Of a stretch of 23,120 nucleotides of DNA, positions 1,282 to 21,000 are shown one piece after another; the stretch's first letter is position 1, and each line of letters opens with the position of its first letter. Source of the stretch: Candidatus Hadarchaeota archaeon (GTDB lineage Archaea > Hadarchaeota > Hadarchaeia > Hadarchaeales > Hadarchaeaceae); the NCBI GenBank assembly GCA_964561735.1, contig CAZLQN010000005.1:1-23120 (forward strand), read 5' to 3'. The translations under genes and the position numbers were made by a program. The notes under the pieces were generated by a model that saw only the letters and a program-made list of their open reading frames with translations, had not been told where the DNA came from and made no database searches.

Positions 1282-1459
1282 GCATTGCGTGGTCTGCGGC
1301 AGGGCGATTGAGCCGGATAAATTTATCTGCTCTCCCGCCTGCGAAGAGGTGATGAAAAGATCCCAGAAGCAGGCGGCGCGGATGAGATTTCTGATGATAG
1401 GGATGTTTGTGGCGCTTTTCGTCGTACTAATGGTCGTGAGCTATTTGAGACAAAGTTAG
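1265..1459 (+). CDS. Small Zn-ribbon plus C-terminal transmembrane helix protein (DUF2116-like)
   Basis: 64 aa with CVVCG...CSPAC, then the hydrophobic stretch FLMIGMFVALFVVLMVV. Overlaps the pyrH stop, which suggests translational coupling. Confidence 0.6.
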   Translation: MVEDHKHCVVCGRAIEPDKFICSPACEEVMKRSQKQAARMRFLMIGMFVALFVVLMVVSYLRQS

Positions 1460-4177
1460 GACATCCCTATCAAAATTTTTAGTGCTGGTTCAGAGATATC
1501 AATTATTTCCACTTTATGTCCAGCGCTCGCCGTCTCTCTCACCACTCTGACGTCTTCTTTGTCGATGGTGAATTTTTTCCCGTTCACGGCGATAGTTAGA
1601 TCTCCAATCTCTAGTTTTCTTGCAACATCTTCTGGGTCGGCTTCTGAAATGGCGCGCAGCACAGCTTTCGCGTCGGAACGCAAGCGTGGCCCAATTTTAG
1701 CAAAGTTTGGTTCAATCGATAGGACTCGCTCGACAACCTTTGGTTTTTCCGTCGTCACCAGAAGTTCTCGAATCTTCATTGTGCCTCGTATGTCGTCTAT
1801 GGCTTGCTCGAGAAGTTTCGCATTTTTTTCATCTGCAGCATATATCTCGACAGAAGGCAACTCGGCGCTGAGCGCTATCCCTTTCTCCGACTTGAATTGA
1901 CGGATGGTGCTGACAACTAAATTTATGAGTTCTCCCAGCTTTTCTGCGGCTTCATCTATGAATCTATCGTCCGCGACGGGCCACTCGGAGAGGTGTATGC
2001 TTGGTTGAGTGTAATTCGAGGCAAAATAATTGTGATATATCTCTTCTGCGAAATGTGGAACGAATGGTGCGAGCAACTTTGCCGCCGTCAAGATAATTTT
2101 GTAGAGCGTGAATTTTGATGCTTCCGCGGTCAAGTCCTCGCCATAGAGGCGATGTTTTACCTCTTCGATGTACATGTCGCAGAACTCATGCCAGATAAAA
2201 GTTTGTACGGCGATCAACGCGCGGTTGAATTGAAAATCCTCCAAATATGCGGTGACTTCTTTGACCAGGCGATTCATCCTGCTCAATATCCATCTATCTG
2301 TCGGTCTAAACTCAAGTTTTGATGGATCGGCGGTTGTGATGTTTACACTTTCGAAATATGGACTAGCGAATCGCGCGGCGTTCCAAAACTTGCGCATGAA
2401 TTTGTAACCGAACTCGACGTCCTTCCAAGCGAATGGAATGTCGGAGCCAGTGGAAGCGCCTATCGCGGCCCACTGCCTCAATGCGTCGGCCCCGTATCTT
2501 TCTCGAGCTTTCGTGGTGTCGACGTAGTTGCCAAGAGATTTGTGCATCGCCCTTCCGTCCGCCCCCAAGACCATGCCATTGACCAGCACGGTTTTGTATG
2601 GAACCTCGCCGACCAACGCCAGAGTGCGGACGAGCAAGTAGTAATCCCAAGTTCTAATTATGTCGGTGCCGTTCGGTTGAAGATCGGCGGGAAAGAGTCG
2701 TTTGTCTAAATTTGGCCATCCAGCGTGCGCAAGTATTGTTAGAGAGCTGTCCATCCAAGTGTCGAGCACATCCATCTCTGGGACAAATTTATCGCCACTA
2801 CATTTTTGGCATTTTTTATGAGGTTCATCTTTCGATGGGTTCACCGGTAACTGATTTTCGTCTGCGACCACTGGAGAGCCGCACTTTGAACAATACCATA
2901 CAGGGATAGGGGTCGCAAAAATGCGCTGTCTCGATATCACCCAGTCCCAGTCCATCGCCTCGGCCCACGCTATGAGGCGGGCGCGCATGTGATCGGGGAC
3001 CCAGCGCGCGCGCATGGCGCCTTCTATCACATCCTCCTTGAGATCGAGGACGCGCATGAACCACTGCTTTTTTGTTAATATTTCGACAGGCGTCTTGCAG
3101 CGCCAGCATACGCCGACGCTCTGTTTGAGTTTTTCCTGTCCACTCAACAGCCCACTTGTCTTGATTTTTTTGAGCACGAGTTCTTTGCACTCGGCAAGCG
3201 AGAGCCCCACGTACTCTCCAGCGGCCTCGCTCATGCGGCCACGCTCGTCGATGGCTTTTATGACGGGCAGCTTGTAGCGCATGGCCCAGCGGACATCCGT
3301 CTTGTCGCCGTAGGTGCATATCATCACCACGCCGGTGCCGAACTGCGGGTCGACCTCGCGATCCTCTATGATTTCTACGATTCGACCGAATACCGGAACT
3401 TCGAGTTTTTTCCCGACATATTTTTTGTAGCGTTCGTCATCGGGGTGGACGGCCACTACGACGCAGGCGTGAAGATACTCCGGGCGCGTCGTTGCGATGG
3501 TCAGAAAATCGTCTTTTCCAACAATTTTGAACTTGATATAGTTCAGCGAGCTATCGCGGTCGTCGTACTCGACTTCGGCGTCGGCTATCGCCGTCTCACA
3601 TCTCGGGCACCAGTTGACCGGATGCTCGCCGCGGTAGATCAAGCCCTTGTTGTAGAGCTGAACGAATGAGAGTTGCGTCTTGCTGTAGTAGCTGGGGTCC
3701 ATCGTGCGGTATTCTGTCGACCAGTCCATCGAGAAGCCCAGCGAGTTCATCTCCTCGCGCATGTGGGCGATGTTCTCCTCGGTGAGCTTGATGCAGAGCT
3801 CGCGGAATTTTTCAGGAGGGAGGTCGCCTTTGCGGATGCCGTAGCGCTTCTCTACTTGTACTTCCGTCGGTAGACCGTGACAGTCCCATGCAGGCCCCAT
3901 GAAATATTTTCACAGAGTTCCCTGGGGAAACAACACGTTGAAGCCGCGCATCCGCTTGTAGCGTGCGACGATATCGAAGTATGTCCAGTTGAACGCCGTC
4001 CCCATGTGAAATTCTCCGCTCGGTTCCACCCTATTAGGAATATGGCGGCGGAGTGTCGATCACATAGGTTGGTGTTTTTGCATCTTCTTTCTTGAATCTA
4101 TATATGTCTAGCTCGCTCCATCGTTGTTGCCATTTTGGCTCTACTTCGAGCGGGTTGTAATCTTTCGGAACTTCCAT
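1456..4177 (-). CDS. valS: Valyl-tRNA synthetase, split into three exons 4177..4040, 4023..3919, 3888..1456 (46+35+810 = 891 aa after removal of two BHB mini-introns)
   Basis: Exon 1 reads [20 protein letters not shown]...[10 protein letters not shown]. Exon 2 reads [35 protein letters not shown]. Exon 3 reads [14 protein letters not shown]...TTRPEYLH...WVISRQR...MHKSLGN. The joined sequence matches the archaeal ValRS N-terminal pattern PPPYP(S/T)G.LH.G...[30 protein letters not shown] as I recall it. A GGAGGTG SD lies 8 nt upstream of the ATG at 4177..4175. Read unspliced, the frame hits TAA TAG at 4036..4031 and TGA inside 3889..3918. Confidence 0.85.
3889..3918 (-). other. Putative BHB mini-intron 2 of valS (30 nt)
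   Basis: All helices are read on the minus strand. Outer helix UCCC(3928-3925)/GGGA(3887-3884). Central 4-bp helix CAGG(3924-3921)/CCUG(3894-3891). 3-nt bulges GAA(3920-3918) and CAU(3890-3888). Inner 10-bp stem CUCUGUGAAA(3917-3908)/UUUCAUGGGG(3904-3895) with an AUA loop. Cutting after the second nt of each bulge joins ...CAG GGA|UGG GAC (QG|WD). The insert contains an in-frame TGA. Confidence 0.8.
4024..4039 (-). other. Putative BHB mini-intron 1 of valS (16 nt)
   Basis: Minus strand. Outer helix CUCCGC-CG(4053-4046)/CG-A-GCGGAG(4022-4014), 8 bp with one bulged A. Central helix CCAU(4045-4042)/GUGG(4029-4026). 3-nt bulges AUU(4041-4039) and AAC(4025-4023). Inner stem CCU/AGG with an AAU loop. 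Cutting after the second bulge nt removes UCCUAAUAGGGUGGAA (includes TAA TAG), corrects the +1 frame offset and gives PPPY|PSGEFHMG. Confidence 0.8.
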
Positions 4178-4180
4178 TTA
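4130..4180 (-). repeat. Direct repeat copy A: valS start region (TAA-ATG plus codons 1-16), attached to the valS body
   Basis: 51 nt, 45/51 identical to 6231..6281. 4130-4153 is a 24-nt perfectly identical core (codons 9-16, PLEVEPKW). 4171-4180 is also identical. The 6 mismatches all lie in 4154-4170. Confidence 0.9.
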
Positions 4181-6254
4181 TGCATACACCTCCTTGTTAG
4201 TTTTTACAGGTTATCTTATATCTCTGTATCCCATTTTAGTAATAACATATTTTGACAATATTGATTCTTTCGATTTTTTGATATATCGCCCTCTACTAAT
4301 TTTATGAATATATCCCCGGTCAGACATTTCTCGCAAAGCCACGATCGCTGGCATTGTCACTCGATTTGAATTAGGAACTTGGCTGCCACCTAGCCTCGTG
4401 GATATCATTGCCGCATCAACATACCCATGCTTTAGTTGAAGGTCATTAAGAATTGGCAGAATATATCGTTCATAGCGTAAGCATTGCTCAGCTGCTTTGT
4501 TGAGTGCGGCAGATTTTCTCGCGATTCGGAACCCAACTTTTCTGTTGTATTTAATCAAATTATCTGGACCACTAATACGGAGTTGCCATTTAGCCCGTAA
4601 TTTTCCATTAAGAGTTTGATAAATCTCTAGCGGGTGAACTGTAGAAGTTATGTTTAGCCTACTGAGAATCTTTTGTTCGTCGAGGATTATTTTTGGTGGA
4701 TGATCCGTGGCATATTTTTGAACACTGTCTTGCAAACGACTGAAGGTAATCCTTTCATTAGCTTCAAGCTCGATTTTGGGTAGAAGTCCAGTAATGTCAG
4801 TAGAGCGTCGCCAATAAATGCCGTATAAATTATGCTGTGGATGATAAACAACGTGCCCTTCATCATCTCCTGTTTGTTGGAGCCAAGCGATCCATATAGT
4901 TTCTTTTTCACTTTTCATCACAAACTCGGGAATGCCGTGATAACTCTCAGCTTTGGGGCTAGTCATCACTCCTACGATTAACAAAATATCACGCACAACA
5001 GTGGGATAAATCAGATAAGTGTCTTTGCTGAAATTAACTCTATATGTTTGAGCATTTCCTCCAAAAGCAGCGATTGCATCATCGATAGCGTTCTGTATTT
5101 GTTCTGGATCTTCTTTGGCAAAATAGATTAGCGATCCATAACCATGACGAGGCCCATAGCTTCTAGTTAGAATATCATCTCCACAGGCTCTAGCGGCTGT
5201 TCGCACGAATGCAGGGTGGTAAATGTCAACAGGCAGGTGAGGGTTATGTATCCCTCGCCCATGTTTTGGGCCTATCCATATCATGTGTTTTTGGGCAGCA
5301 TCCAGAGAAAACATTGGATTATACGTGTTCAAAAAATTTAACAATTTAATCAGTTTGTCTATTCTGATACGCCTACAATATTTGAGGTGATAGAAAATAC
5401 TTTTTGGATTGCCACATAATCTAGCGGCTTTGGTGAAATTATTACTCACCAGATTTTTTATTACATTACAGATCAATTGTACATATTGCTCTGATAATAC
5501 AACAAATGTTTGTTTCGGAGGCAGATCCCAGAAATTTATTGTGTGTAACAAACTTATCCCGCGTGGTCCTGTTAGACTGTATTTAAGCGTCTTTGGGGGA
5601 GGGAGAGGTCAGTGAAAGTAATATTTAAAATATCTTCTTTAGTACTTGTGGTAACTCAGTAAAACTATGAATTTCAAAATCAAAGTCATCGTTTGATTTT
5701 TCTCGAGCAAATTTAATTGTTTTGATACCTATCTCAGATGCCGGGCGAAGATTTTTTGACCTGTCGTCTACAAAAACACAGTCTAAAGGAGATGATTGGA
5801 TTCTATTTAACAGAACATTGTAAATTCTTTTGTCAGGTTTACGATATCCGACTTCTCCACTTACAACAACGATTTTGAATAGCCTGTTTAAACCGAATTT
5901 GGTGCATAGATAGTTAGACCATTCTTTCACATCATTACTCAATATCGCTAGAAAATAATTTTTTGTCAATGGTTTTGCAACCCCAATAAAATCAGGATCT
6001 ATCTCCAAGCACGTATCGAGATACTCTCTCTCAATTTCTAGATATTCGTCACCAAAGCCCAATTCTTTCCAGAAATCGAATGATGAAATCTCTCCTAAAC
6101 TTGCCCTTAAATACATTTCATTGATTTTCTCTGCAGAGATCATTTCATTTCTTTTTTGAATATATGGCACGAGTAAATCATTCACATCATCTGTAACTTT
6201 GAAAATGACGCCCATCATATCTAGAATAACCCATTTTGGCTCTACTTCGAGCGG
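4154..6254 (-). mobile_element. About 2.1-kb AT-rich insertion inside the 5' end of valS (two genes), bounded by the valS-start direct repeats; ends ambiguous within the 24-nt core
   Basis: Base composition shifts sharply to AT-rich between about 4181 and 6230. Imperfect 51-nt direct repeats with a perfect 24-nt core flank it. The cargo is unrelated to neighbouring housekeeping genes. No recognisable tyrosine or serine recombinase is present. Confidence 0.6.
4211..5551 (-). CDS. Hypothetical protein with an apparent double LAGLIDADG-like core flanked by an N-terminal HTH-like and a C-terminal winged-helix-like region (candidate homing-endonuclease relative)
   Basis: A 446-aa ORF in AT-rich DNA is unlikely to arise by chance. 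Two LAGLIDADG-position motifs are FVRTAARACGDDILT and IWIAWLQQTGDDEGHV. The second is preceded by K....GIPEFVMKSEKE. A typical post-core signature follows: LRISGPDNLIKYNRKVGFRIARKSAALNKA. The C-terminus AIVALREMSDRGYIHKISRGRYIKK looks like a winged helix. The start is TTG in the track, so the true start is uncertain. The family call comes from motif reading only. Confidence 0.45.
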   Translation of the reverse strand: MLHTINFWDLPPKQTFVVLSEQYVQLICNVIKNLVSNNFTKAARLCGNPKSIFYHLKYCRRIRIDKLIKLLNFLNTYNPMFSLDAAQKHMIWIGPKHGRGIHNPHLPVDIYHPAFVRTAARACGDDILTRSYGPRHGYGSLIYFAKEDPEQIQNAIDDAIAAFGGNAQTYRVNFSKDTYLIYPTVVRDILLIVGVMTSPKAESYHGIPEFVMKSEKETIWIAWLQQTGDDEGHVVYHPQHNLYGIYWRRSTDITGLLPKIELEANERITFSRLQDSVQKYATDHPPKIILDEQKILSRLNITSTVHPLEIYQTLNGKLRAKWQLRISGPDNLIKYNRKVGFRIARKSAALNKAAEQCLRYERYILPILNDLQLKHGYVDAAMISTRLGGSQVPNSNRVTMPAIVALREMSDRGYIHKISRGRYIKKSKESILSKYVITKMGYRDIR

Positions 6255-6278
6255 ATCGTAATCCTTTGAGACTTCCAT
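5625..6278 (-). CDS. HAD-superfamily hydrolase (subfamily IA-like) whose first 16 codons are a copy of the valS N-terminus
   Basis: Motif I ILDMMGV (nucleophile Asp present, Asp+2 replaced by Met). Motif II LAILSND. Motif III YRKPDKRIY. Motif IV VFVDDRSKNL. N-terminus [16 protein letters not shown] equals repeat copy B. Confidence 0.8.
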   Translation of the reverse strand: MEVSKDYDPLEVEPKWVILDMMGVIFKVTDDVNDLLVPYIQKRNEMISAEKINEMYLRASLGEISSFDFWKELGFGDEYLEIEREYLDTCLEIDPDFIGVAKPLTKNYFLAILSNDVKEWSNYLCTKFGLNRLFKIVVVSGEVGYRKPDKRIYNVLLNRIQSSPLDCVFVDDRSKNLRPASEIGIKTIKFAREKSNDDFDFEIHSFTELPQVLKKIF

Positions 6279-6281
6279 TTA
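6231..6281 (-). repeat. Direct repeat copy B: displaced valS start region, now the first 16 codons of the HAD ORF
   Basis: Encodes [16 protein letters not shown] versus [16 protein letters not shown] in copy A. It is followed by G+C-rich backbone sequence on its promoter side (6282-6340). Confidence 0.9.
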
Positions 6282-6340
6282 AACCAACCAAGAATCAGGG
6301 GCCGAAAGGAAAACATCGATTAGATCGCGTGGAGATTGTT

Positions 6341-7195
6341 CTATTTTTTCCTTGCCTTCTTCACGGCCCGCATGTATTTTTTTACTCTAGATATATCGAC
6401 AGGATTTTCGTTCACCCCACCTTTTTTCAGGTCCGTCCCGACGATGATCCCGTCGGCATATTTTAGAAAATCTTTGACATTTGCAGCAGTGGTGCCGCTC
6501 CCAACGAGCACCGGCGTGTCCCCAGCAAATTCTTTGGCCTTCTTGACTTTCTCCAGCTCGGGAGCCCAACCAGTCAATTTTCCGCTGACGATGAGCGCGT
6601 CGGCGAGATATCGTTCGGTCCACAGTATATGTGTTTCCAAATCGATGCCGGGGAAAGGCACTGAATGTTTTTTGTCGACATCGGCGAAGATCTTGATGTG
6701 TTCAGCCCCCAAGTGTTTTCTCAACCTCAACAGTTCTGCAGCGCAACCGTGGTCAAATTCACCCGTGTCCCAGACCCTTGCTCCCGCCAAAAGACAAATC
6801 CGAACGAATTTCGCTCCAGAAGCAACCGCGATGGATAGCGTCACCTTTCCACCGTTGTGGATGACGTTTATCCCCGTTGGAAGGTTGGTGTTTTTGATTA
6901 CTTCCCTCGCCACGACGGCTTGTGCAGTCATCTCCTCTGGTGGCACATCCTCTCCGACGTAGTACGGATGGTCCCACATGTTCTCTACCATCAGCCCGTC
7001 AACGCCGCCCTCCTCGAGATTTTTCGCGTCGGCAAGAGCTTTCTCGATGATGGTATCCATGCCATAAAAATCGTAGCCTGGTGCGCCTGGCAAGGGTATC
7101 AGGTGGACCATCCCTACTATCGGTTTATCCACCGCGAAAATTTCTTGCAAATTTTTCATTTTCACATTATCCATTTTTTCTTTCCACTCCACCAT
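6341..7195 (-). CDS. BtpA/SgcQ-family TIM-barrel protein
   Basis: 284 aa. GMVHLIPLPGAPGY near the N-terminus and an alternating beta/alpha pattern ending in VLVGSGTT...GIIVGT, as in the BtpA family. A GGGGTG SD lies upstream. Confidence 0.75.
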   Translation of the reverse strand: MVEWKEKMDNVKMKNLQEIFAVDKPIVGMVHLIPLPGAPGYDFYGMDTIIEKALADAKNLEEGGVDGLMVENMWDHPYYVGEDVPPEEMTAQAVVAREVIKNTNLPTGINVIHNGGKVTLSIAVASGAKFVRICLLAGARVWDTGEFDHGCAAELLRLRKHLGAEHIKIFADVDKKHSVPFPGIDLETHILWTERYLADALIVSGKLTGWAPELEKVKKAKEFAGDTPVLVGSGTTAANVKDFLKYADGIIVGTDLKKGGVNENPVDISRVKKYMRAVKKARKK

Positions 7196-8117: not shown

Positions 8118-8148
8118 GTTGTCACCGCAAGAAGTTAATTGGTAATAT

Positions 8149-8883
8149 CTATCTCCGATTTTCCCTTACGTAACCGATTATTGCGTTATCAATTAATTTT
8201 GGTATAGAAGTGGTGAAATTTTCTTTATTTTTTCTTTTCCAATAAATAGTTTCAATGCGATCTACTTTTTTACAGATCAAATAGAATCCATCAAATACTT
8301 CTAAAAACATGTCTTTCTGCTTTTCTTCTGATTTTGGTATGTAGAGTTCCTTGACGAATTTTTCTTTATAAAAGAAATTTATGGTATGTCTTCTGTCTAT
8401 GGGTGGAATTAAATCAGGCAAGAGATGATGTAGTGTTTTAGAATTTCCAACTAATTTAGGTCTTTCCATTACTTCTGGATTTTTAGTTTCTTTTTTCATT
8501 ATTTCTAAATTTTCAAAGAGGTTTGATAAAGTTGGTTTTATTTTTTCCTTGTCATTATCATCTAATTCATGTAATTTAAATTTAGTTAATTTTTCTAACG
8601 TATCTATATTACTTCGGATATTTTGTTTAAAATTTTCAAAATCTTCTAATAACGCACTTTTAGTCATCCTGTGCATACCCCAAGAGGCCAAAGTAGCGTA
8701 GATACGTTCGATAAACATATCCTCTTTTTCCAATAATTCTCGATAATCTTTTGTGTTTCGAATCATGTAAAGAACTCTTCCATGAAAATAGACACTTGGA
8801 CCAGAAAAAGGATTTTTATAATATTTATCGACGAAAGACTCAAACTTCTTTGTTAATTTTTCGATTCTAGTTTCAACGTTCAT
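8149..8883 (-). CDS. Hypothetical protein (single gene of an AT-rich island)
   Basis: 244-aa ORF in strongly AT-rich DNA, Lys/Glu/Asn-rich. I cannot name a family. The conserved-looking segment is VGNSKTLHHLLPDLIPPIDRRHT. Confidence 0.65.
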   Translation of the reverse strand: MNVETRIEKLTKKFESFVDKYYKNPFSGPSVYFHGRVLYMIRNTKDYRELLEKEDMFIERIYATLASWGMHRMTKSALLEDFENFKQNIRSNIDTLEKLTKFKLHELDDNDKEKIKPTLSNLFENLEIMKKETKNPEVMERPKLVGNSKTLHHLLPDLIPPIDRRHTINFFYKEKFVKELYIPKSEEKQKDMFLEVFDGFYLICKKVDRIETIYWKRKNKENFTTSIPKLIDNAIIGYVRENRR

Positions 8884-8958
8884 AATTCTCGTTCATAACT
8901 ATAGACTCACAACCTTAAGTTAATTTTAATCCTGCGTTTTTTGTGCACAAAGTTCAAA

Positions 8959-10212: not shown

Positions 10213-10288
10213 TGGTGGACCGGGCGGGATTTGAACCCGCGACCTCTCGCTTGCGAAGCGAGCGTTCATGCCACTGAACTACCGGCCC
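10213..10288 (-). tRNA. tRNA-Ala (anticodon CGC), genome-encoded CCA
   Basis: Reverse strand: GGGCCGG UA GUUC AGUGGCAU GAAC G CUCGC UUCGCAA GCGAG AGGUC GCGGG UUCAAAU CCCGC CCGGUCC A CCA. Full cloverleaf of 76 nt. The G3:U70 alanine identity pair is present. Confidence 0.95.
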
Positions 10289-12783: not shown

Positions 12784-12802
12784 GGGCTCGTAGCTCAGCT
12801 TG
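12784..12802 (+). repeat. Orphan copy of the first 19 nt of tRNA-Ile (acceptor 5' strand plus D-arm start)
   Basis: GGGCTCGTAGCTCAGCTTG versus GGGCCCGTAGCTCAGCTTG at 13724-13742 (18/19). Same orientation. Similarity stops abruptly on both sides. The AT-rich sequence begins at 12803. Confidence 0.75.
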
Positions 12803-13723
12803 TTTTTTCTTTAAGCAGACAATTTCCTGTAGAATGATGGTTTTACAAATTGCCGAGCCCAACGTTGCCCTCCGTATATCAATAAGTAAAGATCAACTAT
12901 TGATGGTTTCAAGTTTCTGTTAACACAATATTTCTGTATGATTTTAACTACCTTCAAAAGATTCCGTTCACCTTTTTTCGATTCTACTATCCCAATCTCT
13001 TTTGAAACTTTCATGACTATTGTATCTGGTTTTATACAATCGTACCCGATATGCAAAAGGAAATGTAGTAAACTTGTCGTGTTACTAAAAAAGGCATGTC
13101 CATATTTATTAGTTCCTTTTTCAGATAGTTGAATCCTTGCCAGAAATTTTCAATATCAGATTCCTCTTTTAGGATAGTTGGTATTTTTGAAGTTTTGAGT
13201 AAATTTAGAAAAGAACCGTATTTTGATTTGATTAGCTGAAGTGTTTTTGCGCAGTAAACAATAGATTCAAGTTTTCGCGGAAATCTAATAGCTTTGATTT
13301 CTTCCCAATGAAGATTCTTTAGCTCATCAGGATCCAGTTGAGCAACTCTATCGACTTGAAAACCATGAAAAATGCGTTCAAATATTCCTTTGTTGAGCAT
13401 ATTAGATATCAAGTCAGATCGTGTATTTTGGCTGAATGCTATCAATCTAGCAAGTCGCCTTAAGACATCATCATCGTTTCGAATCACGTTGGGGGTTCTT
13501 TTCATACGCTCCTTAATTTCCTCTGAAAATTCTGGCTCTCTTCTTAAGGGATTAACTTTTTCAATGATTTGATCTATTGAACTAAATATTCGTTCAATTT
13601 CCATAGAGATGTATCCTCCCCAATTTTGGCATTTTATCCAACCACCACTTGAATTACACACCGCAGAATTTGAACTTGATTGTTGAGGGAGTATCATTTA
13701 AATTTCTGAGGACATGTTTAGTT
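12803..13723. mobile_element. About 0.9-kb AT-rich cassette inserted at the 5' end of tRNA-Ile, bounded by 19-nt direct repeats (no recombinase; probably a remnant)
   Basis: Composition shift, flanking direct repeats 12784-12802 and 13724-13742, and a single frameshifted cargo gene. A TTTAAAT TATA-like box at about 13697-13703 inside the cassette sits about 24 nt upstream of tRNA position 1. Confidence 0.55.
12811..13604 (-). pseudogene. DNA-3-methyladenine glycosylase I (Tag)-like HhH protein, interrupted by a frameshift (ORFs 13032..13697 and 12811..13056)
   Basis: Block-wise resemblance to E. coli Tag, recalled from memory. DDDVLRRLARLIAFSQ..., FHGFQVDRVAQLDPDELKNL...IKAIRFPRKLESIVYCAKTLQLIKSKYGSFLNLL is in one frame. 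GHAFFSNTTSLLHFLLHIGYDCIKPD is in the -1 frame (compare Tag GFKFVGTTICYSFMQACGLVNDH). The second frame opens only after the TGA at 13152-13150. The likely true start is the ATG at 13604, preceded by GGAGGAT. Confidence 0.5.
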
Positions 13724-13816
13724 GGGCCCGTAGCTCAGCTTGGCTGGAGCGCTCGGCTGATAACCAGTTGGGCAGCCACCGGGAGGTCCTGGGTTCAAAT
13801 CCCAGCGGGCCCACCA
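13724..13816 (+). tRNA. tRNA-Ile (anticodon GAU) with a 15-nt intron at canonical position 37/38 (13763..13777); genome-encoded CCA
   Basis: GGGCCCG UA GCUC AGCUUGGCUG GAGC G CUCGG CUGAUA[ACCAGUUGGGCAGCC]A CCGGG AGGUC CUGGG UUCAAAU CCCAG CGGGCCC A CCA. The intron forms a relaxed BHB: CUG/CAG pairing of the anticodon region with the intron, and bulges UAA and CCA. Confidence 0.9.
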
Positions 13817-19195: not shown

Positions 19196-19342
19196 GGAAT
19201 TGCACCACTCCGCTATCGCCTCAAGTTCTTCTTTAACATTTTGGAGCTAGTTAGTTCGTATCAGCATGTAACAAGTTAGAAGGAGAGCGAAAAGTACGTG
19301 TTTAGTTGTTTAGGTTCAACTTAGTATTACGCCGCTGAGGTG

Positions 19343-19356
19343 TGCACGGCCGTGCA
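19343..19356. promoter_or_regulatory. Palindromic site 1: TGCACGGCCGTGCA (perfect 14-bp palindrome)
   Basis: Read directly. Lies 4 nt beyond the stop of the small ORF and about 150 nt upstream of the hypD start. Confidence 0.6.
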
Positions 19357-19359
19357 GTA

Positions 19360-19617
19360 TCAAGGTGGCTGGCGTCGTGCCCCGATTCTGAATTCGTACC
19401 ACTTCAACTCTGGCCCTTCGAAGTGTTTTAGGAGTTTTCTGAACTCACGCGAGTGTCTTTCGTCAACGAGATAAACCGAGCCGCCGACCTTGCTCCAGCT
19501 TTTCGGCGAGAGCCCTTCGAGGGTTCGCTTCAAGTTGATGTAAAACCACCGCTTTCGCCTCGCCTTGTCGCGGAGTTCCCACGTGAACAAAACCGATTTC
19601 TCTCGCTTGCTGTGCAC
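19360..19617 (-). CDS. Small basic hypothetical protein (85 aa), candidate DNA-binding/regulatory protein
   Basis: GTG start preceded by GGGGAG 9 nt upstream, with a TTTATAAA box at about 19656-19663. The pattern VLFTWEL / RRKRWFYINLKRTL / GGSVYLV / SREFRKLLKHF / WYEFRI suggests a beta-alpha-beta-beta-alpha-beta (ferredoxin/Cas2-like) fold. The gene is exactly bracketed by two copies of the palindrome. Confidence 0.5.
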   Translation of the reverse strand: MHSKREKSVLFTWELRDKARRKRWFYINLKRTLEGLSPKSWSKVGGSVYLVDERHSREFRKLLKHFEGPELKWYEFRIGARRQPP

Positions 19618-19626
19618 GGCCGTGAA
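19613..19626. promoter_or_regulatory. Palindromic site 2: TGCACGGCCGTGAA (13/14)
   Basis: Overlaps the GTG start codon (19617..19615) and the SD spacer of the small ORF. Confidence 0.6.
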
Positions 19627-19655
19627 CTCCCCGCCGATGCTTTGGTCGAAGGGTG

Positions 19656-19663
19656 TTTATAAA
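19656..19663 (-). promoter_or_regulatory. TATA box (TTTATAAA) for the small ORF / hyp operon direction
   Basis: About 40 nt upstream of the GTG at 19617 on the minus strand. Located between palindrome sites 2 and 3. Confidence 0.45.
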
Positions 19664-19679
19664 GACAGAACAAACACCG

Positions 19680-19693
19680 TGCACGGCCGTGCA
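19680..19693. promoter_or_regulatory. Palindromic site 3: TGCACGGCCGTGCA (perfect)
   Basis: Sits between the two divergent TATA boxes. It ends 4 nt upstream of TTATATA, which is the BRE position of the flavodiiron promoter. Confidence 0.6.
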
Positions 19694-19697
19694 TTCG

Positions 19698-19704
19698 TTA
19701 TATA
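19698..19704 (+). promoter_or_regulatory. TATA box (TTATATA) of the flavodiiron protein gene
   Basis: Consensus-like archaeal TATA element about 100 nt upstream of the ATG at 19804. Flanked by palindrome sites 3 and 4. Confidence 0.5.
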
Positions 19705-19731
19705 GGCGTTTGCCAAACGAGATGAAAATTG

Positions 19732-19745
19732 TGCACGGCCGTGAA
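19732..19745. promoter_or_regulatory. Palindromic site 4: TGCACGGCCGTGAA (13/14)
   Basis: Starts about 28 nt downstream of the TATA box 19698-19704, which is the expected transcription start of the flavodiiron gene. Confidence 0.6.
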
Positions 19746-19803
19746 GTTAGCAGGGACAGATCGGCTAAATAGATACGAGCGAAATAACTTTTGTTGGGTT
19801 AAA

Positions 19804-21000
19804 ATGGTCAAGGTCGTCGAGATTTCCAAAGGCATTTTCTGGGTTGGGGTTGAGGACAAGCATCGTAGGATATTTGACAGTCTAATAACTCTGCCGTATG
19901 GGACGTCTTACAATTCATATTTAGTGGTCGGGAAGGACAAGACCGCACTGATCGACACAGTCAATCCAGGATTCGAGAAAGAATTTTTTAAAAAAATTGG
20001 CAAAGTTGTGAATCCAGAAAAGATAGATTATTTGATAATGAACCACGCTGAACCCGACCACGCTGGCGGGATATCAGAGGTTTTGTCGAAAGCTAGATAC
20101 GCGAAACTTGTTGCCACTCAGAAGGGTGCAGAGATGGCGGGGGTTTTCCACGGTGTGCCACCCGAGCGGACGATGGTCGTCAGAGATGGGGATACTTTGG
20201 ACTTGGGTGGAAAGACGTTGAAGTTCATCGAGGCCCCATGGTTGCACTGGCCAGAGACGATGTTCACATATTGCGAAGAGGATGGAGTTCTATTCTCATG
20301 TGATTTCTTCGGTTCACACATCGCTTCCAATCGACTTTTCGACGATGAGTTTGGGGATATCCTTCACATAGAGGCCAAACGGTACTATTCAGAAATCATG
20401 ATGCCGTTCAACAAGTTCGTGTCGAATGGTTTGGATAAGGTCAAGGAAATCGATGTCAGGATGGTTGCGCCTAGTCATGGCCCAATCTACAAAAATCCAA
20501 GGAGAATAATCGATGCTTACGAGAAATGGGCTCGTGGACCGCTCGAGCAAAAGGTGGTAGTAGTCTACGTTTCGATGTGGGGAAATACCGAGGCGATGGC
20601 GAAAATCATCACAGATGCAATATTGAAAGAGGGCGTGGAAGCTGTATCGTACAACGCGTTTGCAACTGATGTTTCTTACATCGCCAGGGATTTGGTGGAT
20701 GCGAGCGCGGTGGTAGTGGGTTCTCCGACATTGCTGGGTGGAGTGCATCCGGTCGTCGGTTTGGTTGTGAGTCTAATAAAAGCGTTGAGGCCGCGCTTGA
20801 AGTATGCGGCGATCTTCGGTTCCTACGGCTGGGGCGGTGGGGCTGTGGATCGAATAAAAACCACATTGCAATCTGCCGGGCTTGAGATAATGGATGTTTC
20901 AAGTGTGAGGGGAAAACCCAAGAAAGAAGATTTTGAGAAGGCAGAAAATCTTGGTAAACTTGTTGCACAAAAAGTTAAAGAAATCGTAAAAATTTCCTAA
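19804..21000 (+). CDS. Flavodiiron protein (FprA/ROO-type O2 or NO reductase)
   Basis: MVKVVEISKGIFWVG..., a metallo-beta-lactamase-like diiron domain (NHAEPDHAG) followed by a flavodoxin-like domain (VVVVYVSMWGNTE). The track ORF start at 19729 lies inside the promoter and operator, so it is rejected. Confidence 0.9.
   Translation: MVKVVEISKGIFWVGVEDKHRRIFDSLITLPYGTSYNSYLVVGKDKTALIDTVNPGFEKEFFKKIGKVVNPEKIDYLIMNHAEPDHAGGISEVLSKARYAKLVATQKGAEMAGVFHGVPPERTMVVRDGDTLDLGGKTLKFIEAPWLHWPETMFTYCEEDGVLFSCDFFGSHIASNRLFDDEFGDILHIEAKRYYSEIMMPFNKFVSNGLDKVKEIDVRMVAPSHGPIYKNPRRIIDAYEKWARGPLEQKVVVVYVSMWGNTEAMAKIITDAILKEGVEAVSYNAFATDVSYIARDLVDASAVVVGSPTLLGGVHPVVGLVVSLIKALRPRLKYAAIFGSYGWGGGAVDRIKTTLQSAGLEIMDVSSVRGKPKKEDFEKAENLGKLVAQKVKEIVKIS

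Follow-up and report, generated by a model that had tools for sequence, protein, structure and literature searches.

The probable scar of a homing-endonuclease cassette at an intron-bearing valS gene of a Hadarchaeota archaeon

In fungal mitochondria, homing-endonuclease open reading frames (ORFs) insert at the end of a gene together with a replacement copy of that end, and the displaced original terminus remains nearby. In phages, collaborative or trans homing joins a free-standing endonuclease gene to an ORF-less intron next door, as for F-CphI beside the psbA intron of cyanophage S-PM2 and for mobE beside the nrdB intron of T4 (PMC2790892, PMC6083498). In archaea, mRNA introns with the bulge-helix-bulge motif of tRNA splicing are found in cbf5 of Crenarchaeota and in the 5' untranslated region of HVO_1309 in Haloferax (PMC2738675, PMC7714728, PMC10485636), and a 2020 study and a 2023 review give these two genes as the only ones for which tRNA-type splicing is established (PMC7714728, PMC10485636). 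The literature that we consulted does not explain by which route protein-coding genes acquire such introns (PMC10485636, PMC7714728). Here we describe the valS locus in a 23,120-nt stretch of Candidatus Hadarchaeota archaeon (contig CAZLQN010000005.1, hereafter the window). Around valS, the gene for valyl-tRNA synthetase (ValRS), the locus appears to combine a LAGLIDADG homing system, bulge-helix-bulge introns in a protein-coding gene, a stranded gene start and the capture of a foreign gene. The front of valS has probably been replaced by a mobile homing-endonuclease cassette with two introns, leaving a short repeat of the valS start as its scar; a foreign gene for a HAD hydrolase would later have fused to the start codon left behind. 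A literature search, which covered few subscription-journal papers, returned no report of bulge-helix-bulge introns in Hadarchaeota or in valS.

The repeat finder returned a sole long two-copy direct repeat in the window, 51 nt at 4130-4180 and 6231-6281, with 45/51 positions (88%) identical. Read on the minus strand, either copy gives TAA-ATG followed by 16 valS codons. All six mismatches fall within codons 3-8, and the junction-side 24 nt are identical. The G+C content (GC) between the copies is 0.33-0.41, as compared to 0.50-0.56 in the flanks, and two minus-strand ORFs lie there, a HAD ORF (5625-6278) and an ORF of 446 amino acids (aa) (4211-5551). A preliminary description made from the letters of this DNA had reported the repeat, its mismatch pattern and the AT-rich two-gene segment, all of which the repeat finder, the alignment of the copies and a windowed GC profile bore out; the interruptions of valS reported below were absent from it. 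On the minus strand, btpA (6341-7195) is followed in turn by a 59-nt spacer, the HAD fusion, the 446-aa ORF, a 30-nt spacer and valS from 4177. An identical 217-aa fusion protein of valS leader and HAD hydrolase, with the same neighbours, occurs in five independent assemblies (two from ENA, one from JGI and two from Logan), so the arrangement is real and no assembly artefact. The best matches of the ValRS are in metagenome-assembled genomes of Hadarchaeota (61-95% identity). The features of the locus, in the order of transcription, are as follows.

6282-6340, minus strand: native btpA-valS spacer, which once preceded valS and now precedes the HAD fusion ORF, for which it may serve as promoter region.
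6231-6281, minus strand: displaced native valS start (repeat copy A), with TAA, ATG at 6278 and codons 1-16; its last 8 nt (6231-6238) are CAAAATGG.
5625-6278, minus strand: valS-leader::HAD fusion ORF, 217 aa (Pfam Hydrolase and HAD_2), with the foreign HAD body at 5625-6230.
5605-5624, minus strand: conserved box ATATTACTTTCACTGACCTCTC with a TATA-like element, marking the left end of the putative endonuclease module.
4211-5551, minus strand: predicted free-standing LAGLIDADG homing-endonuclease homologue, 446 aa, TTG start, with an N-terminal helix-turn-helix (HTH) and a C-terminal winged HTH.
4181-4210, minus strand: spacer between endonuclease gene and valS with GGAGGTG, a putative ribosome-binding site as read from the sequence.
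4130-4180, minus strand: repeat copy B, with which the module-borne valS exon 1 begins (repeat comparison).
4040-4177, minus strand: valS exon 1, 46 codons, imported with the module according to sister-pair identities and a replaced tract in strain L091.
4024-4039, minus strand: intron 1, a predicted 16-nt bulge-helix-bulge mini-intron between PPPY and PSGEFHMG.
3919-4023, minus strand: valS exon 2, 35 codons (sister-pair identities).
3889-3918, minus strand: intron 2, a predicted 30-nt bulge-helix-bulge mini-intron between FPQG and WDCHG.
1456-3888, minus strand: valS exon 3, the resident host-type part (Pfam and sister-pair identities).

At the DNA level, valS is not intact. It contains 16 extra nt at 4024-4039 and 30 extra nt at 3889-3918, both with stop codons; translation from 4177 meets stops after codon 47, and the long valS ORF (1456-3900) begins at an internal ATG. 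Deleting both inserts yields an uninterrupted 891-aa ValRS with conserved protein sequence, including FPQGWDCHG. The gene is uninterrupted at both sites in all 19 Hadarchaeota relatives that have the region assembled and lack the 446-aa gene (hereafter endonuclease-free), while in a twentieth such locus, L020, the second site is uninterrupted and the contig begins after the first. An insert between FPQG and WDCHG is present in seven endonuclease-bearing lineages, six of which also have one between PPPY and PSGEFHMG. The second-site insert is thus found in 7/7 carrier lineages and 0/20 endonuclease-free loci. In six other lineages, homologous inserts at these two sites measure 19 nt and 41-44 nt, and across lineages the inserts (16-44 nt) are structured and conserved in position at about 70% identity. 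This contig of L020 (JBGPSS010000034.1, 1-90), the closest relative, whose ValRS is 95% identical and which lacks intron 2, stops 16 nt beyond the intron-1 site, as might happen if mixed alleles in that population had broken the assembly.

Both inserts lie in an exact motif of helix, 3-nt bulge, 4-bp helix, 3-nt bulge and helix, and the predicted cuts coincide with the insert boundaries. For intron 1, the central helix is CCAU/GUGG, the bulges are AU-U and AA-C (the hyphen marking the cut), the inner hairpin is CCU-AAU-AGG, and the outer helix CUCCGC-CG/CG-A-GCGGAG has 2+6 bp. For intron 2, the central helix CAGG/CCUG and the bulges GA-A and CA-U are joined by a 10-bp inner hairpin and a 4-bp outer helix, UCCC/GGGA. 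A motif of minimum quality occurs in about 1.5e-4 of predetermined site-and-length combinations, and at the strength of the intron-2 motif the single match in the window, on both strands, is intron 2 itself. Since a permissive scan returned hundreds of chance matches, the evidence lies not in the motif by itself but in its agreement with the insert boundaries. Across lineages, 99.1% and 100% of cells retain the proposed pairing, as compared to 32-54% when the partners are slid. The exon flank required for pairing, TTTCCCCAGGGA, is invariant in 8/8 intron-bearing loci shown, and the intron-less alleles vary synonymously there. These results suggest that the inserts at 4024-4039 and 3889-3918 are tRNA-type introns needing removal from the valS mRNA. 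ValRS production would then require their excision by the tRNA-splicing endonuclease, followed by exon ligation. A separate candidate, in which the entire 2.1-kb segment forms one large bulge-helix-bulge intron across the repeat copies, was rejected, as it gave only chance-level motifs with helices of 2-5 bp. Automatic gene calling found no valS in two intron-bearing loci (L083, 3550-6318, and L087, 6744-9497) and split that of L079 into pieces of 83 and 814 aa. Essential genes with such introns can therefore appear missing or broken in annotations of archaeal metagenome-assembled genomes.

The distribution of the 446-aa gene and the composition of valS both point to mobility. The ancestral Hadarchaeota gene order is p336-MBL-valS. 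Endonuclease-bearing loci are scattered in the ValRS tree, each beside a near-identical endonuclease-free sister (L088/L010, L087/L004 and L008/L005). In these three pairs, the nucleotide identity of carrier and sister is 64-70% in exon 1, 82-89% in exon 2 and 94-99% in exon 3, and the excess divergence ends 0-150 nt past the intron-2 site. Between carriers of different clades, the corresponding values are about 75%, 92-95% and 75-82%. In the window, the comparison with L020 gives 14 mismatches in 89 nt of exon 2 and 35 in 600 nt of exon 3. Between clades, the synonymous divergence (dS) is 0.62 for the endonuclease gene and 2.6 for valS exon 3, a comparison that the lower G+C of the endonuclease gene may have biased; in the pair of the window and L079, the two genes have an equal dS of 0.35. 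Apart from 34 differences within 3982-4186, strain L091, of the window's species, has 99.8% identity to the window; this replaced tract takes in exon 1 and intron 1 as well as 40 nt at the beginning of exon 2. Taken together, the mosaic of the sister pairs, the scatter in the tree, the dS values and the L091 tract indicate joint transfer: the endonuclease gene travels from genome to genome together with the intron-bearing 5' end of valS, and the two recombine into the valS gene already there. The valS-linked endonuclease is thus polymorphic for presence and absence, and flanking sequence is co-converted with it. The imported DNA in the window appears to extend across exons 1 and 2 and both introns as far as about 3889, with its right edge at or just past intron 2. 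The end of the foreign tract 0-150 nt past intron 2 hints, indirectly, at a cut near the intron site.

The 446-aa protein has 12 close homologues (>=67% identity), and those with a named source are all from Hadarchaeota. Its gene lies directly upstream of valS in every contig recovered, across seven lineages, and the layout of GGAGGTG and spacer before valS is alike in all endonuclease-bearing loci. An exhaustive profile search found about 200 relatives. Pfam LAGLIDADG_3 was matched at E <= 1 by 10/10 close homologues (best 4e-4) and at E <= 0.01 by 17/45 sampled family members (best 3e-10), and the distant members P0140 and P0147 reached 26.1 and 24.4 bits, above the cutoff of 22.5 bits. The motifs AARACGDG (D125, G126) and LQQTGDDEG (D230, E231, G232) are invariant in 10 close homologues; across 45 family members, D230 never varies, and conservation is 90% or more for D125, G126 and G232. 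Searches of the PDB with the protein sequence and with its profile returned no match. An earlier AlphaFold model from 10 close homologues was poor (pLDDT 53), and a fold search with it was meaningless. The model from a 45-sequence alignment has a pLDDT of 89 and a pTM of 0.85 and contains the double alpha-beta-beta-alpha-beta-beta-alpha core fold. Among PDB structures, the model comes closest to intein homing endonucleases (7qss at 6e-7, 2cw7, PI-PfuI and PI-SceI), WhiA, I-DmoI and I-OnuI, and Foldseek gave a probability of 1.00 to TliVMA, PI-TkoII, PI-PfuI, PI-SceI, WhiA and E-DreI and of 0.99 to I-DmoI. The gene has a dN/dS (ratio of nonsynonymous to synonymous divergence) of 0.12-0.19, and in L087 it is split into two ORFs. 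The predicted fold and the conserved motifs thus identify the 446-aa ORF as a free-standing two-motif LAGLIDADG homing-endonuclease homologue, which may cleave DNA at a site in valS.

Some relatives of the protein occur elsewhere. A distant homologue, P0133 (E = 3e-50; L097-L099, JGI metagenome contigs), is encoded tail-to-tail, with slight overlap, with a leuS-like gene for a 937-aa class I aminoacyl-tRNA synthetase with a leucyl-type editing domain. Another homologue, P0146, has no synthetase gene nearby and adjoins an Nre gene in a toxin-antitoxin-rich region, and two further distant family members sit on short contigs. A general link of this endonuclease family to aminoacyl-tRNA synthetase genes is not established.

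A conserved box lies 75-160 nt upstream of the LAGLIDADG genes recovered. The pattern, ATTACTTTCNNNGANCTCTC, spans about 20 nt beside a TATA-like element and precedes the endonuclease gene in all 18 matching loci, while it occurs in 0/87 other loci fetched. It is seen in the window at 5605-5624 and in L008, L079-L086, L088, L090-L096 and L100; L087 has a variant copy. The genes preceded by it include a different LAGLIDADG subfamily and, from an unrelated sample, a member with an identity of only 23%. The box may act as a promoter or leader or as an operator, or it may mark where the module ends. The sister lineage offers a parallel at a tRNA gene. In L079 (161-1070), tRNA-Ala(CGC) is 87 nt long, with a 14-nt anticodon-loop intron read by eye from the sequence, and is inverted relative to the window copy (10213-10288). 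Directly upstream of it lies a 257-aa LAGLIDADG_3 gene preceded by the same box, here AAATATTACTTTCGGCGACCTCTC. The tRNA-Ala of the window is 76 nt long and has neither the intron nor the endonuclease gene. A profile comparison found no similarity between the tRNA-Ala-linked LAGLIDADG_3 protein and the 446-aa family.

The left junction of the module differs from lineage to lineage. In the window, it follows valS codon 16; in the sister lineage (L079, L095 and L096), it follows codon 27, giving an 81-nt duplication with no perfect core. In L087, it follows codon 7 of the resident valS, with ATTAC microhomology and a flank 98.6% identical to that of the empty sister L004, and in L008 it lies within the MBL-valS spacer, with no remnant. 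In L079, L095 and L096, a native-type start (MEVSKDYDPLEIEPKW...) follows btpA and a MEVP-type start follows the 446-aa gene. The far copies of the window and L079 represent one native type (MEVSKDYDPLE...), and the valS-proximal copies one imported type. Given these two types and the lineage-specific junctions, the 51-nt repeat is a stranded native start and no attachment site. The unambiguously valS-derived part of the far copy is 43-51 nt, as its last 8 nt are also present in HAD genes. The segment of btpA, spacer and remnant start is colinear between the window and L079 (87% identity). Among the Hadarchaeota loci examined, btpA, which has backbone-like GC, lies in the MBL-valS interval only in the window lineage and its sister, and its absence there from all of the others indicates that btpA itself is an older insertion.

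The window and L079 are non-homologous in one block only, the HAD segment (5630-6230), in the place of which L079 has valS codons 17-27 and, on the opposite strand, an M48 peptidase gene. GC is 0.335 in the HAD body (5625-6230), and free-standing homologues of 207-209 aa begin with MSTKW followed by VILDVMGV. One native HAD gene, in a genome of 33% GC, begins with ATGTCAACAAAATGGGTTATT. The valS leader ends with GAGCCAAAATGG and shares the 8 nt CAAAATGG with the 5' end of the native HAD gene; a join within these 8 nt puts the fusion in frame. At its 3' end, the HAD gene stops with its own last codon, directly before the conserved box of the endonuclease module. By composition and these two ends, the HAD gene appears to be foreign, from an AT-rich donor, with a history separate from that of the 446-aa gene.

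By analogy with phage collaborative homing (PMC2790892, PMC6083498), we propose the following mechanism. The module would consist of the free-standing LAGLIDADG gene and its own valS 5' end (exon 1, the 16-nt intron, exon 2 and the 30-nt intron), and it would have replaced the valS 5' end in the common ancestor of the window Hadarchaeote and the sister lineage. The endonuclease would cut intron-less valS in the conserved coding sequence of the HIGH region, whereas carriers would be protected by mini-introns that split the cut site. The break would be repaired from a carrier allele. On the right, the crossover would be homologous, at or just 3' of intron 2; on the left, a different upstream neighbour would have led to an illegitimate join, stranding the native valS start behind btpA (6231-6281). 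Later, a HAD gene from an AT-rich donor would have been inserted between the stranded start and the endonuclease gene through the CAAAATGG microhomology, losing only Met-Ser-Thr and gaining the old valS start codon, ribosome-binding site and upstream region. We infer cleavage and its site, protection by the introns, RNA splicing and the order of events from the sequence comparisons above.

Several observations weigh against this reconstruction. The 446-aa protein of the window reaches only 12.5 bits against the Pfam cutoff of 22.5 bits, and WhiA, a non-catalytic LAGLIDADG-derived DNA-binding protein, is among its best structural matches. The covariation in the introns is thin, with one compensatory pair each, and shuffle controls were not exceeded because most intron pairs never vary; the case for splicing comes from structure and reading frame only. 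L079 lacks intron 1 despite carrying the endonuclease gene, and the dS comparison is open to the compositional bias mentioned above. The empty-site check suggested in the preliminary description had a mixed outcome: filled/empty locus pairs exist for other lineages, but a metagenome scan with a native-start-specific 23-mer found no empty btpA-valS site for the window lineage and returned two contigs only, both from the sister lineage and both filled. The order of events in the window lineage is thus a reconstruction. The perfect junction-side 24 nt are only partly explained, with chance, gene conversion between the copies and drift in the L079 remnant as candidates. All three differences between the far copies of the window and L079 make the window far copy resemble its own near copy, which fits gene conversion; drift in the untranslated L079 remnant gives the same result. 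The main rival explanation builds on the likeness to WhiA: the LAGLIDADG protein would be a domesticated WhiA-like DNA-binding protein or an RNA helper for valS expression and no active nuclease, ordinary lateral transfer by way of homologous and illegitimate recombination would account for the mosaic valS 5' ends and the stranded start, and the introns would spread or persist by themselves. The additional HTH and winged-HTH domains, the strong purifying selection, the fixed adjacency to valS and the upstream box as a possible operator would all suit such a protein. However, the metal-binding acidic residues of both LAGLIDADG motifs, which have reportedly been lost in WhiA, are kept in a family whose identity is about 22%. 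A gene that is present in one and absent from the other of two near-identical sisters, and whose dS is below that of the host gene, shows the pattern of a selfish mobile gene, the co-occurrence with the second-site intron is perfect, and the split copy in L087 is as expected of endonuclease-gene decay. We therefore regard a domesticated protein as unlikely, although it is the alternative to be taken most seriously.

The remaining explanations concern the repeat itself. A local tandem duplication of the valS 5' region, with later insertions between the copies and no foreign 5' end, would account for the direct orientation and 88% identity of the copies, whose divergence (12%) is little above that between the window and L079 in the same stretch. 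It does not predict that the valS-side 5' end has introns absent from the closest endonuclease-free relatives, that exon 2 differs from L020 far more than exon 3 does, or that a like foreign 5' end with an endonuclease gene occurs in four other clades beside intact endonuclease-free sisters, and we consider it improbable. The preliminary description had favoured site-specific integration of a 2.1-kb element at an attachment (att) site in the first valS codons, with the host site and an element-borne mimic of the start recombining through a crossover in the 24-nt core. Parts of that account hold: the direct repeat flanks AT-rich DNA, every mismatch lies outside the junction-side 24 nt, the valS-proximal copy is indeed the incoming one and the far copy the displaced native start, as the start types of L079, L095 and L096 agree, valS is now preceded by imported DNA only, and the HAD gene is fused in frame to the displaced start. 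The integration step fares much worse. It was right that no integrase is recognizable: Pfam and NCBIfam scans of the window ORFs tested, and the Pfam annotation of genes in the related loci, revealed no integrase, recombinase or transposase; the LAGLIDADG homology of the second ORF had been missed. The junctions differ between lineages, with another position and no perfect core in the sister lineage and a 7-codon remnant or none elsewhere, and the codon-16 junction, taken for the edge of an att core, coincides with the 8-nt HAD microhomology, which explains it instead. Moreover, the imported DNA does not end at 4130 but reaches about 290 nt into valS, past the repeat, and the supposed single element falls into a HAD gene and a 446-aa gene that arrived separately. 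Site-specific integration is thus very improbable. An artefact, whether a chimeric join or frameshift errors in valS, would be in keeping with a metagenome-assembled source and with the L020 contig that ends inside the region; given the five assemblies that agree and inserts of 16-44 nt that are structured and conserved in position across lineages, we give it next to no weight.

Beyond this locus, we raise one tentative generalization: archaea may harbour gene-front replacement cassettes, each a box-marked free-standing LAGLIDADG gene with an intron-immunised copy of an adjacent essential translation gene (valS, tRNA-Ala and possibly leuS). If this is true, homing endonucleases seed bulge-helix-bulge introns into archaeal protein-coding genes, and stranded gene starts offer ready-made expression sites that capture foreign genes. 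At valS itself, predicted splicing would make this the third archaeal gene for tRNA-type mRNA splicing, with two introns that interrupt the best-conserved motifs of an essential aminoacyl-tRNA synthetase. The natural pairs of filled and empty alleles tie the introns to a mobile endonuclease gene, so that intron origin and spread become directly testable. The HAD fusion suggests, in addition, that a gene acquired by lateral transfer can be expressed from a stranded start codon to which a microhomology join has linked it.

Other parts of the window contain further AT-rich islets. Rfam detected two tRNAs only. One islet (12803-13723, GC about 0.33) lies between a 19-nt copy of the tRNA-Ile 5' end (12784-12802, 18/19 identical) and the full intron-containing tRNA-Ile(GAU) (13724-13816), and holds one minus-strand ORF (13032-13697) with a weak match to 3-methyladenine glycosylase. 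Its layout of stranded 5' fragment, cargo and intron-bearing gene is like that at valS; no endonuclease gene and no conserved box were found in 12784-13816. The third islet (8120-8950, GC 0.27-0.33) separates the MBL-fold gene from the 336-aa gene (p336), whereas p336 and MBL, or p336 and valS, are adjacent in most Hadarchaeota. It holds a 244-aa minus-strand ORF (8149-8883) with no family match, which has a 54%-identical homologue at the same place in L095 of the sister lineage; in L079, a 170-aa ORF is called there. Finally, an 18-nt near-palindrome, TGTGCACGGCCGTGCAGT, occurs in four copies at 19341-19747, from 400 nt upstream of the start of a flavodiiron-type gene (19729-21000) to an overlap with it, and these copies may be operator sites.

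As compared to the known systems, the valS locus resembles several of them in part. With phage collaborative homing, it shares a free-standing endonuclease gene beside a gene with an ORF-less intron in a conserved site, the co-occurrence of endonuclease gene and intron, and the co-conversion of flanks; the adjacency and co-occurrence that characterize collaborative homing are both present at the valS loci. It differs in lying on an archaeal chromosome, in having two introns and in that cleavage at the insertion site is a proposal here. The phage introns are self-splicing group I introns, whereas those of valS are bulge-helix-bulge introns of 16-44 nt, predicted to be cut by a cellular enzyme, and the valS-linked enzyme is of LAGLIDADG type with extra HTH domains. 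Like the introns of cbf5 and HVO_1309, the valS introns place a tRNA-type splicing motif in mRNA and are patchy among relatives, indicating gain and loss. They differ in the gene, in the phylum (Hadarchaeota), in the presence of two introns in one coding sequence and in the link to a homing endonuclease, and their splicing is a prediction.

The endonuclease homologue shares the two-motif LAGLIDADG fold and conserved acidic residues with I-DmoI (PDB 1b24), PI-PfuI and PI-SceI, and like I-DmoI and the intein endonucleases it is tied to archaeal bulge-helix-bulge introns and to conserved sites of essential genes. In contrast to them, its gene lies outside both intron and host gene, and the protein, of about 440 aa, has an N-terminal Cro/C1-type HTH and a C-terminal winged HTH. 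The SSV-type and pNOB8-type archaeal elements likewise have host-gene direct repeats that flank AT-rich foreign DNA, with element-borne sequence restoring the gene, but the valS locus has no integrase, its junctions vary, and the foreign DNA extends past the repeat. The fungal mitochondrial case offers an element-borne gene terminus and a remnant of the original that leaves a short direct repeat of coding sequence. There, it is the 3' end of the gene that is replaced; at valS, it is the 5' end with its start codon, and the remnant start is reused by another gene.

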